From Escherichia coli (GTDB taxonomy: Bacteria > Pseudomonadota > Gammaproteobacteria > Enterobacterales > Enterobacteriaceae), in assembly GCF_003334405.1 (NCBI RefSeq), contig NZ_QOWM01000004.1: DNA of 64,000 nt. One strand, written 5' to 3'. Shown here piece after piece: positions 17,224 to 18,357 of this stretch. Each line of letters begins with the position of its first letter. The first letter of the stretch is position 1. Position numbers and translations under genes: made by a program. Under the pieces are notes generated by a model, which saw nothing but the letters and a program-made list of their open reading frames with translations, ran no database searches and had not been told where the DNA came from.

Positions 17224-18357
17224 GTGAATGACGCTATCCCTCGCCCGCAGGCGAAAACCCGTAAGGCGCTGACGCCGCTATTAGAAATCCGCAACCTGAC
17301 CAAATCCTACGATGGTCAACATGCGGTGGATGATGTCAGCCTGACCATCTACAAAGGTGAAATCTTCGCGCTGCTGGGCGCATCCGGCTGTGGCAAGTCC
17401 ACGCTGCTGCGTATGCTGGCAGGTTTCGAACAACCTTCTGCCGGACAGATAATGCTTGATGGCGTCGATTTGTCACAGGTTCCGCCTTACCTGCGCCCCA
17501 TCAATATGATGTTTCAGTCTTACGCGCTGTTTCCGCATATGACCGTGGAACAGAACATCGCTTTTGGCCTGAAACAGGACAAACTACCGAAAGCGGAAAT
17601 TGCCAGCCGGGTCAATGAGATGCTCGGCCTGGTGCATATGCAGGAGTTCGCCAAACGCAAACCGCATCAGCTTTCCGGTGGTCAGCGACAACGTGTGGCC
17701 CTGGCCCGAAGCCTTGCGAAGCGCCCGAAACTATTACTGCTCGATGAGCCGATGGGCGCGCTGGATAAAAAGCTGCGTGACCGGATGCAGCTTGAAGTGG
17801 TGGATATTCTGGAGCGCGTCGGTGTGACTTGTGTGATGGTCACCCACGATCAGGAAGAGGCGATGACCATGGCGGGGCGCATCGCCATTATGAATCGTGG
17901 GAAATTTGTCCAGATTGGCGAACCGGAAGAGATCTACGAGCATCCGACTACCCGCTATAGCGCCGAATTTATTGGCTCGGTAAACGTCTTTGAAGGCGTA
18001 CTCAAAGAGCGTCAGGAAGATGGCCTGGTGCTTGATTCGCCGGGGCTGGTGCATCCACTGAAAGTCGACGCGGATGCCTCGGTGGTCGATAACGTGCCGG
18101 TACATGTGGCGCTGCGCCCGGAAAAAATCATGCTTTGCGAAGAGCCGCCCGCCAATGGTTGTAACTTCGCGGTGGGGGAGGTGATACACATTGCCTATCT
18201 CGGCGATCTTTCGGTGTATCACGTTCGTCTGAAAAGTGGGCAGATGATTAGCGCCCAGCTACAAAACGCCCATCGTCATCGTAAAGGGTTACCGACCTGG
18301 GGCGACGAAGTGCGTTTGTGCTGGGAAGTGGACAGCTGTGTGGTGCTGACGGTTTAA
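17224..18357 (+). CDS. potG: Putrescine ABC transporter ATPase PotG (377 aa)
   Basis: Track ORF 17143..18357; recalled N-terminus MNDAIPRPQ corresponds to GTG at 17224; Walker A GASGCGKST, signature LSGGQRQR. Confidence 0.88.
   Translation: MNDAIPRPQAKTRKALTPLLEIRNLTKSYDGQHAVDDVSLTIYKGEIFALLGASGCGKSTLLRMLAGFEQPSAGQIMLDGVDLSQVPPYLRPINMMFQSYALFPHMTVEQNIAFGLKQDKLPKAEIASRVNEMLGLVHMQEFAKRKPHQLSGGQRQRVALARSLAKRPKLLLLDEPMGALDKKLRDRMQLEVVDILERVGVTCVMVTHDQEEAMTMAGRIAIMNRGKFVQIGEPEEIYEHPTTRYSAEFIGSVNVFEGVLKERQEDGLVLDSPGLVHPLKVDADASVVDNVPVHVALRPEKIMLCEEPPANGCNFAVGEVIHIAYLGDLSVYHVRLKSGQMISAQLQNAHRHRKGLPTWGDEVRLCWEVDSCVVLTV

Follow-up and report, generated by a model that had tools for sequence, protein, structure and literature searches.

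Orthologue comparison and reference annotation support GTG and TTG as the start codons of potG, ybjT and ftsK in Escherichia coli

Canonical Shine-Dalgarno-led initiation at GUG or UUG in Escherichia coli combines a near-cognate start codon with a GGAG core 6-8 nt upstream. In coupled adjacent cistrons, the stop codon of the upstream gene lies in or next to the Shine-Dalgarno sequence of the downstream gene. A third described arrangement is dosage control by a weak start codon or a structured initiation region, of which infC, an autoregulated gene with an AUU start, is an example. The infC AUU codon is a confirmed non-canonical start, and genome-wide the starts of E. coli genes are ATG, GTG and TTG in proportions of 83, 14 and 3 % (10.1101/063800). 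The potG and ybjT genes described here share the near-cognate codon and the spaced GGAG of the canonical system and do not differ from it. The ltaE-ybjT pair has the same geometry as coupled cistrons in 7/7 loci, a likeness that is read from the geometry. The ftsK gene differs from canonical UUG starts in how deeply its codon is conserved (109 of 114 Enterobacterales species among the matches listed). It shares with the infC type of control a weak codon, a conserved initiation region and a possible stem around the Shine-Dalgarno sequence and start. It differs from infC in that UUG is a canonical near-cognate codon, not discriminated like AUU, and in that the ftsK stem shows no covariation.

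The analyzed stretch of 64,000 nt (the window) is an E. coli K-12-like chromosome with the gene order bssR ... potFGHI ... ltaE-ybjT-ybjS ... lrp-ftsK-lolA-rarA-serS. The 701-nt stretches around all three sites are 100 % identical to E. coli genomes, including MG1655 in the case of the potG stretch. In every RefSeq/PGAP record inspected (K-12 MG1655, several 100 %-identical strains, one 92.9 %-identical strain and four strains with a divergent potG leader), the coding sequences start at window positions 17224 (potG), 30515 (ybjT) and 55457 (ftsK). The original prediction had placed the three starts at these codons, and the RefSeq coordinates and codons agree with it in full, with resulting protein lengths of 377, 476 and 1329 aa. 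The RefSeq starts are themselves partly propagated predictions. For the mapping of annotated genes onto the window, MG1655 was used for the first 10 kb and each open reading frame was re-anchored; in strain 300709 a prophage replaces the first ~10 kb, and there is a 1-nt offset in the second half.

Among the 58 complete annotated coding sequences mapped to the window, 51 start with ATG, six with GTG (ybjL, ybjM, rimK, potG, ybjT and rarA) and one with TTG (ftsK). Non-ATG starts are not enriched and occur in the usual proportions; given the published genome-wide values, the three non-ATG starts are no more than expected by chance. The original prediction named three of the seven non-ATG starts and left out the GTG starts of ybjL, ybjM, rimK and rarA.

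We consider it very likely that translation of these three ordinary E. coli genes genuinely begins at the GTG and TTG codons, as canonical near-cognate initiation codons. A Shine-Dalgarno core lies at the canonical distance of 6-8 nt before all three starts. The original prediction had remarked on a plausible ribosome binding site for ybjT only, and this is present as AAGGAG, 6 nt before the GTG; potG and ftsK also carry GGAG. The start codons of potG, ybjT and ftsK orthologues vary only among start-type codons and never among synonymous sense codons (for ftsK, among the matches listed). In the predicted mechanism, the GGAG sequence 6-8 nt upstream would position the 30S subunit at each start, and initiator fMet-tRNA would then read GUG (potG, ybjT) or UUG (ftsK) to begin the products Met-Asn-Asp, Met-Pro-Gln and Met-Ser-Gln, respectively. 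From established knowledge of bacterial initiation we infer this chemistry, as well as any part that the weak codons may play in keeping expression low.

The predicted potG start is the GTG at 17224-17226 (plus strand), which coincides with the RefSeq start of a 377-aa coding sequence (17224-18357, 1134 nt; RefSeq and NF008621). The GTG is followed by AAT GAC GCT, encoding (M)NDA, and the product opens (M)NDAIPRPQ. A GGAG Shine-Dalgarno sequence (17213-17216, plus strand) within the conserved CCGGAGAG lies 7 nt before the GTG, with a predicted anti-Shine-Dalgarno duplex of -6.6 kcal/mol. The motif CCGGAGA is present ahead of the potG start codon in all seven genera compared. The homologous codon is GTG in five of them (E. 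coli, Salmonella, Rahnella, Pantoea and Pectobacterium) and TTG in two (a Cedecea-like genome and a Buttiauxella genome). In the Cedecea-like locus no start-type codon precedes the TTG. Pantoea has an ATG two codons 5′ of the GTG that is an equally good start candidate, so the exact start of potG can shift between genera.

Protein homology places the boundary at the same codon. When the 404-aa open reading frame was compared with NCBIfam NF008621 (PotG equivalog), profile positions 1-377 of 377 aligned to residues 28-404, with a score of 851 bits against a cut-off of 613, and profile position 1 falls on the GTG. All 120 homologues listed for the 404-aa query in the protein database cover 93 % of it (one covers 96 %), which corresponds to 377 aa, and homologue lengths among the matches listed cluster at 377-379 aa. 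PotG proteins begin MND(A/V)...RPQ in Escherichia, Salmonella, Cedecea, Pantoea, Erwinia, Rahnella, Symbiopectobacterium and Duffyella. Some homologues were over-extended by gene callers (by MEV-, MVV-, MIYAGEHPV- or, in Pectobacterium, a 23-residue piece); these extensions show no relationship to one another or to the one in E. coli, and these proteins have valine at the residue where the GTG lies. The next start-type codon downstream is a GTG at codon 35. PotA structures can be aligned with PotG from its residue 12 onward, and a start at codon 35 would delete aligned sequence.

The mechanical open reading frame list extends potG upstream to an ATG at 17143-17145 (plus strand), directly after an in-frame TAG, 27 codons before the GTG and 14 nt past the potF stop codon. 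Under this longest-ORF reading of the locus, the protein would have 404 aa, of which the first 27 would form an N-terminal extension. The 1993 description of potFGHI and older database entries reportedly gave this 404-aa ATG form of PotG, which is said to have been revised later. In favour of the 404-aa form, the codon is of the preferred start type, ATG, and no stop interrupts the frame that runs from 17143 in K-12 and in 4/5 of the E. coli strains inspected. The ATG has no Shine-Dalgarno sequence (+0.5 kcal/mol), though, and in the centroid fold it lies in the first of two stem-loops predicted in the potF-potG spacer (17144-17173 and 17177-17193, plus strand), a stable hairpin. No homologue that covers the 27 extra residues was found in the protein database matches or in NF008621. 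In E. coli O157 AR-0427 the extension is interrupted by an in-frame TAA six codons ahead of the GTG, and the region that matches the extension has in-frame stops nine codons before the GTG in Salmonella and one codon before it in Rahnella, where a TGA stands immediately 5′ of the GTG.

The extension also evolves without codon periodicity. Among five E. coli strains, the 77 nt that begin at the GTG vary at five sites, all of them third codon positions (0/0/5), while the 81-nt extension has ten variable sites, distributed 5/1/4 by codon position, and its amino acids change. The sequence of the spacer is completely different between genera. Its fold is not unusually stable compared with expectation (z = -0.57). 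We conclude from these sequence comparisons that the 27-codon extension is predicted non-coding spacer. The 404-aa frame would then be an accidental open frame running through the hairpin-bearing potF-potG spacer, and we regard synthesis of a 404-aa PotG as extremely unlikely.

The ybjT start is predicted at the GTG at 30513-30515 (minus strand, first base 30515), which matches the RefSeq start of a 476-aa coding sequence (29085-30515, minus strand, 1431 nt). CCG CAA CGC follows the GTG, encoding (M)PQR, and the product opens (M)PQRILVLG. Seven orthologous loci were compared: the window, a divergent E. coli (L003), Salmonella, Citrobacter, [Enterobacter] lignolyticus, Leclercia and Intestinirhabdus. 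The codon is GTG in 7/7, and the sequence TAAGGAG before it (30522-30528, minus strand) is likewise invariant in 7/7. TAAGGAG combines the stop codon of ltaE (TAA, 30528-30526) with the overlapping Shine-Dalgarno sequence AAGGAG (30527-30522) of ybjT, 6 nt before the GTG, with a predicted duplex of -9.2 kcal/mol. The gap between the ltaE and ybjT coding sequences is 10 nt. With the ltaE stop codon lying inside its Shine-Dalgarno sequence, ybjT is probably translationally coupled to ltaE, as the geometry suggests.

The original prediction had stated that the open reading frame list extends both potG and ybjT to unsupported upstream ATG codons. This is correct for potG, with its ATG at 17143. 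It does not apply to ybjT, whose frame contains no ATG from the upstream stop (TGA, 30599) down to the GTG; the only candidates there are a TTG (30590-30588) and a GTG (30545-30543), in a stretch (30543-30590, minus strand) that falls within the 3′ end of ltaE, and the list extends ybjT to the TTG at 30590 (501 aa). Starts at the TTG or the GTG would give proteins of 501 or 486 aa. Both are start-type codons in an open frame, and the TTG has a weak GGTG-type match upstream (-5.8 kcal/mol), but the AAGGAG before the GTG at 30515 is far stronger. Neither position keeps a start-type codon in the divergent E. coli L003. The five loci from outside Escherichia (Salmonella, Citrobacter, E. lignolyticus, Leclercia and Intestinirhabdus) have in-frame stops 4-14 codons 5′ of the GTG with no start-type codon between. 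The YbjT homologues are all about 476 aa long. Use of either upstream codon is accordingly extremely unlikely, and the open frame there would be the 3′ end of ltaE, read in a frame other than its own.

Orthologues of the 501-aa query cover 94-95 % of it (476 aa) and are mostly 474-480 aa long. In the alignment of orthologue N-termini, which the original prediction had proposed as a check, homology of the extended frames ends at the proposed starts (93 % query coverage for potG, 95 % for ybjT). All inspected YbjT orthologues begin M[PSA]Q.ILVLG, and the Rossmann GxxGxxG motif (GASGYIG) is at residues 9-15 of the 476-aa form. Relatives in the PDB align from their own residues 2-6 to the same N-terminal strand. 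Precomputed Pfam matches of YbjT orthologues are PF13460, PF05368, PF01370 and PF11066 (NAD_binding_10/NmrA/Epimerase and DUF2867). No NCBIfam model matched YbjT at 1e-10. By its motif and the domain matches of its orthologues, YbjT is predicted to be an NAD(P)-binding Rossmann (SDR-type) protein with a DUF2867 C-terminal domain.

The ftsK start is predicted at the TTG at 55457-55459 (plus strand). As the original prediction had it, this is the first in-frame start: no other start-type codon separates it from an in-frame TAA (55439) six codons upstream, and it is also the RefSeq start of a 1329-aa coding sequence (55457-59446, plus strand, 3990 nt; RefSeq and NF007615). AGC CAG GAA follows the TTG, encoding (M)SQE, and the product opens (M)SQEYTEDK. 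The GGAG Shine-Dalgarno sequence (55445-55448, plus strand) within the conserved CCTGGAGAG is 8 nt before the TTG, with a predicted duplex of -6.4 kcal/mol. NCBIfam NF007615 (FtsK equivalog) matches from the first residue, with residues 1-1329 aligned to profile positions 1-1355 of 1355 and a score of 3049 bits against a cut-off of 1566. The N-terminus MSQEYTEDK is found in FtsK homologues of Salmonella, Klebsiella, Raoultella, Kluyvera, Enterobacter, Tatumella, Pantoea, Erwinia, Serratia, Yersinia and Proteus.

To survey the codon before this peptide, we searched a single genome of each species for DNA encoding SQEYTEDK and placed no constraint on the codon in front. At least 120 stretches matched; among those listed, 114 were scored as ftsK, two were cut by a contig end (both with TTG before) and four matched by chance and were unrelated. 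This sampling favours lineages that keep SQEYTEDK and is silent on lineages with diverged N-termini. The start codon among the matches listed is TTG in 109 of the 114 Enterobacterales species and ATG in five (Morganella, three Providencia and Moellerella), and CTG, TTA or any other CTN codon occurs in none. The internal leucine codons 13 and 37 of the same 114 loci are spread over 5-6 leucine codons. GGAG is present 6-8 nt before the start in 108/109 TTG loci and 0/5 ATG loci among the matches listed, and in 68/114 of these loci there is no NTG upstream of the start before a stop. Non-consensus frequencies over codons 10-40 are 0.19, 0.08 and 0.46 by codon position and are flat, at about 0.5, upstream of the Shine-Dalgarno sequence (both among the matches listed).

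An alternative is that ftsK initiates downstream, either at codon 38 (ATG, 55568) or at one of the TTG codons 13 and 26; the annotated TTG would then be no more than the earliest start-type codon in the frame. Codon 38 is ATG in 102/114 species among the matches listed, and the TTG at 55532 has a GGAGG nearby (-9.3 kcal/mol), but at a spacing of only 2 nt. Against a downstream start, the amino acids at residues 1-37 are conserved while their codons vary synonymously, and codons 13 and 26 are not maintained as start-type among the matches listed. Initiation at codon 38 would also cut away half of the first predicted membrane helix of FtsK. Codon 1 is exclusively TTG or ATG, with the conserved GGAG 6-8 nt before it, among the matches listed. 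We therefore give a downstream start almost no credence and retain the TTG at 55457 as the predicted start of ftsK.

Minor isoforms might be made from alternative in-frame codons beside the annotated start of each gene. Two published studies document alternative in-frame starts in a number of E. coli genes (PMC4909307; 10.1101/520783), and weak secondary initiation would be compatible with our sequence analysis of potG, ybjT and ftsK. The three genes are absent from the alternative and re-annotated start tables of the tetracycline-profiling study, which cover a range of +/-60 nt (PMC4909307); that range excludes the potG ATG (-81 nt) and the ybjT TTG (-75 nt). The N-terminomics supplement does not mention potG, ybjT or ftsK by gene name, b-number or UniProt accession (PMC13245402), and no direct initiation-site record for the three genes was found in the supplements of these two studies. 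The alternative starts of the three genes are not conserved and are not preceded by a properly spaced Shine-Dalgarno sequence, which speaks against several starts per gene, and we consider such isoforms very unlikely. The comparative and annotation-based evidence supports the GTG and TTG codons, not the longer open reading frames, as the probable real starts.

Around the ftsK start, conservation at the nucleotide level exceeds what the protein would require. In the 107 TTG-start species among the matches listed, codons 2, 3, 4 and 7 are AGC, CAG, GAA and GAA in all, and codon 9 is AAA in 106. Equally conserved serine, glutamine and glutamate residues at codons 24, 43, 47, 50, 52 and 53 use 2-4 synonymous codons each among the same matches. 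CCTGG at 55442-55446 is present in 102/107 loci among the matches listed. The five ATG-start species have neither CCTGG nor GGAG, and 3/5 have CAA at codon 3.

A consensus fold from RNAalifold has a CCUGG/CCAGG stem and a GAG/CUU inner stem around the ftsK Shine-Dalgarno sequence and UUG. This possible hairpin (55442-55466, plus strand) would pair CCUGG at 55442-55446 with CCAGG at 55462-55466 and enclose the ribosome binding site and start. There is no covariation in the proposed stem, and every pair is invariant, so the alignment neither supports nor refutes it. The E. coli leader fold is not more stable than shuffled sequence (z = -0.54). The CCUGG/CCAGG stem leaves the frozen GAA and AAA codons unexplained.

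The conservation of the start region fits selection on the rate of FtsK initiation and hints at it without demonstrating it. One specific form of this reading is that the start acts as a throttle, made up of the UUG, the CCUGGAG and nine synonymously frozen codons in more than 100 Enterobacterales species and operating possibly via the stem, and that the Morganellaceae genera Morganella, Providencia and Moellerella have swapped it for an AUG without a Shine-Dalgarno sequence. We regard a throttle of this kind as rather unlikely. If it were true, selection would hold FtsK synthesis low or regulatable. We know of no regulator of, or experimental link to, control at the ftsK start region.

The three starts are already known, annotated and ordinary, and they are a routine annotation point, not a discovery. 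All three are in the reference annotation, so confirming them leaves the field as it was. With the correct starts, the three proteins have their true N-termini: PotG is predicted at 377 aa and not as a 404-aa artefact, the Rossmann strand of YbjT is put at the very N-terminus, and FtsK keeps its cytoplasmic N-terminal tail before the first membrane helix. They also avoid mis-designed expression constructs, deletions and fusions. The only mildly new point is the depth of conservation of the weak ftsK UUG and the nucleotides around it, which hints that the rate of FtsK translation may be under selection.

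The window contains four annotated GTG starts in addition to those in the original prediction. These belong to ybjL (position 12052, minus strand) and, on the plus strand, ybjM (12322), rimK (14200) and rarA (60227), and each is based on the RefSeq annotation and an intact open reading frame. In E. coli strain 300709 (locus L141, 1-9702), P2-like prophage genes adjoin ybjL. At this position, in its left part, the K-12-like window instead carries bssR-yliI-gstB-dacC-deoR-ybjG-mdfA-...-rcdA; the difference between the two strains is a strain-specific insertion or replacement.

The spacer between potF and potG (window 17144-17193) is filled by two stem-loops. 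There are 10 variable sites between E. coli strains in this spacer, some of them on both arms of stem 1, and in other genera this position is occupied by unrelated sequence of hairpin or REP-like type. A possible role of the stem-loops is to stabilise the potF transcript or to limit read-through into potG. The Pantoea potG locus (L132, 1201-1209) has an extra ATG two codons 5′ of the conserved GTG and 4 nt past the GGAG. The precise start in Pantoea is ambiguous because both lengths of PotG, 379 and 377 amino acids, occur in public sources.

Fusions of YbjT to LtaE, the product of the gene directly upstream, are rare in the protein database (P0121-P0135; 720-814 amino acids) and come from E. 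coli assemblies. Such a fusion is possible because 27 codons upstream of ybjT are open in its frame (window 30516-30599, minus strand). Most of the entries are single-member clusters, and the fusions are probably due to frameshifts or assembly errors near the 3′ end of ltaE.

A LexA-box-like palindrome, CTGTTAATCCATACAG (window 55363-55378; CTG-N10-CAG), lies about 80 nt 5′ of the ftsK start and agrees with the SOS-inducible dinH promoter described for this gene.

From the Shine-Dalgarno sequence to codon 9 of ftsK (window 55442-55483), the synonymous sites of codons 2, 3, 4, 7, and 9 are invariant (AGC, CAG, GAA, GAA, and AAA) in about 107 Enterobacterales species among the matches listed (L012-L131), whereas conserved FtsK residues farther downstream switch freely between synonymous codons in the same species. 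CCTGG at the Shine-Dalgarno sequence has its complement, CCAGG, within codons 2-4, and pairing of the two could form a stem enclosing the Shine-Dalgarno sequence and the start codon. No covariation in this candidate stem was seen across the aligned ftsK loci, and the stability of the start-region fold is not unusual.

Five species of Morganella, Providencia, and Moellerella (L055, L073, L079, L085, and L094) start ftsK with ATG and lack the GGAG/CCTGG element, which belongs to the 109 TTG-start species among the matches listed. This looks like an exchange between a weak codon with a Shine-Dalgarno sequence and a strong codon without one.
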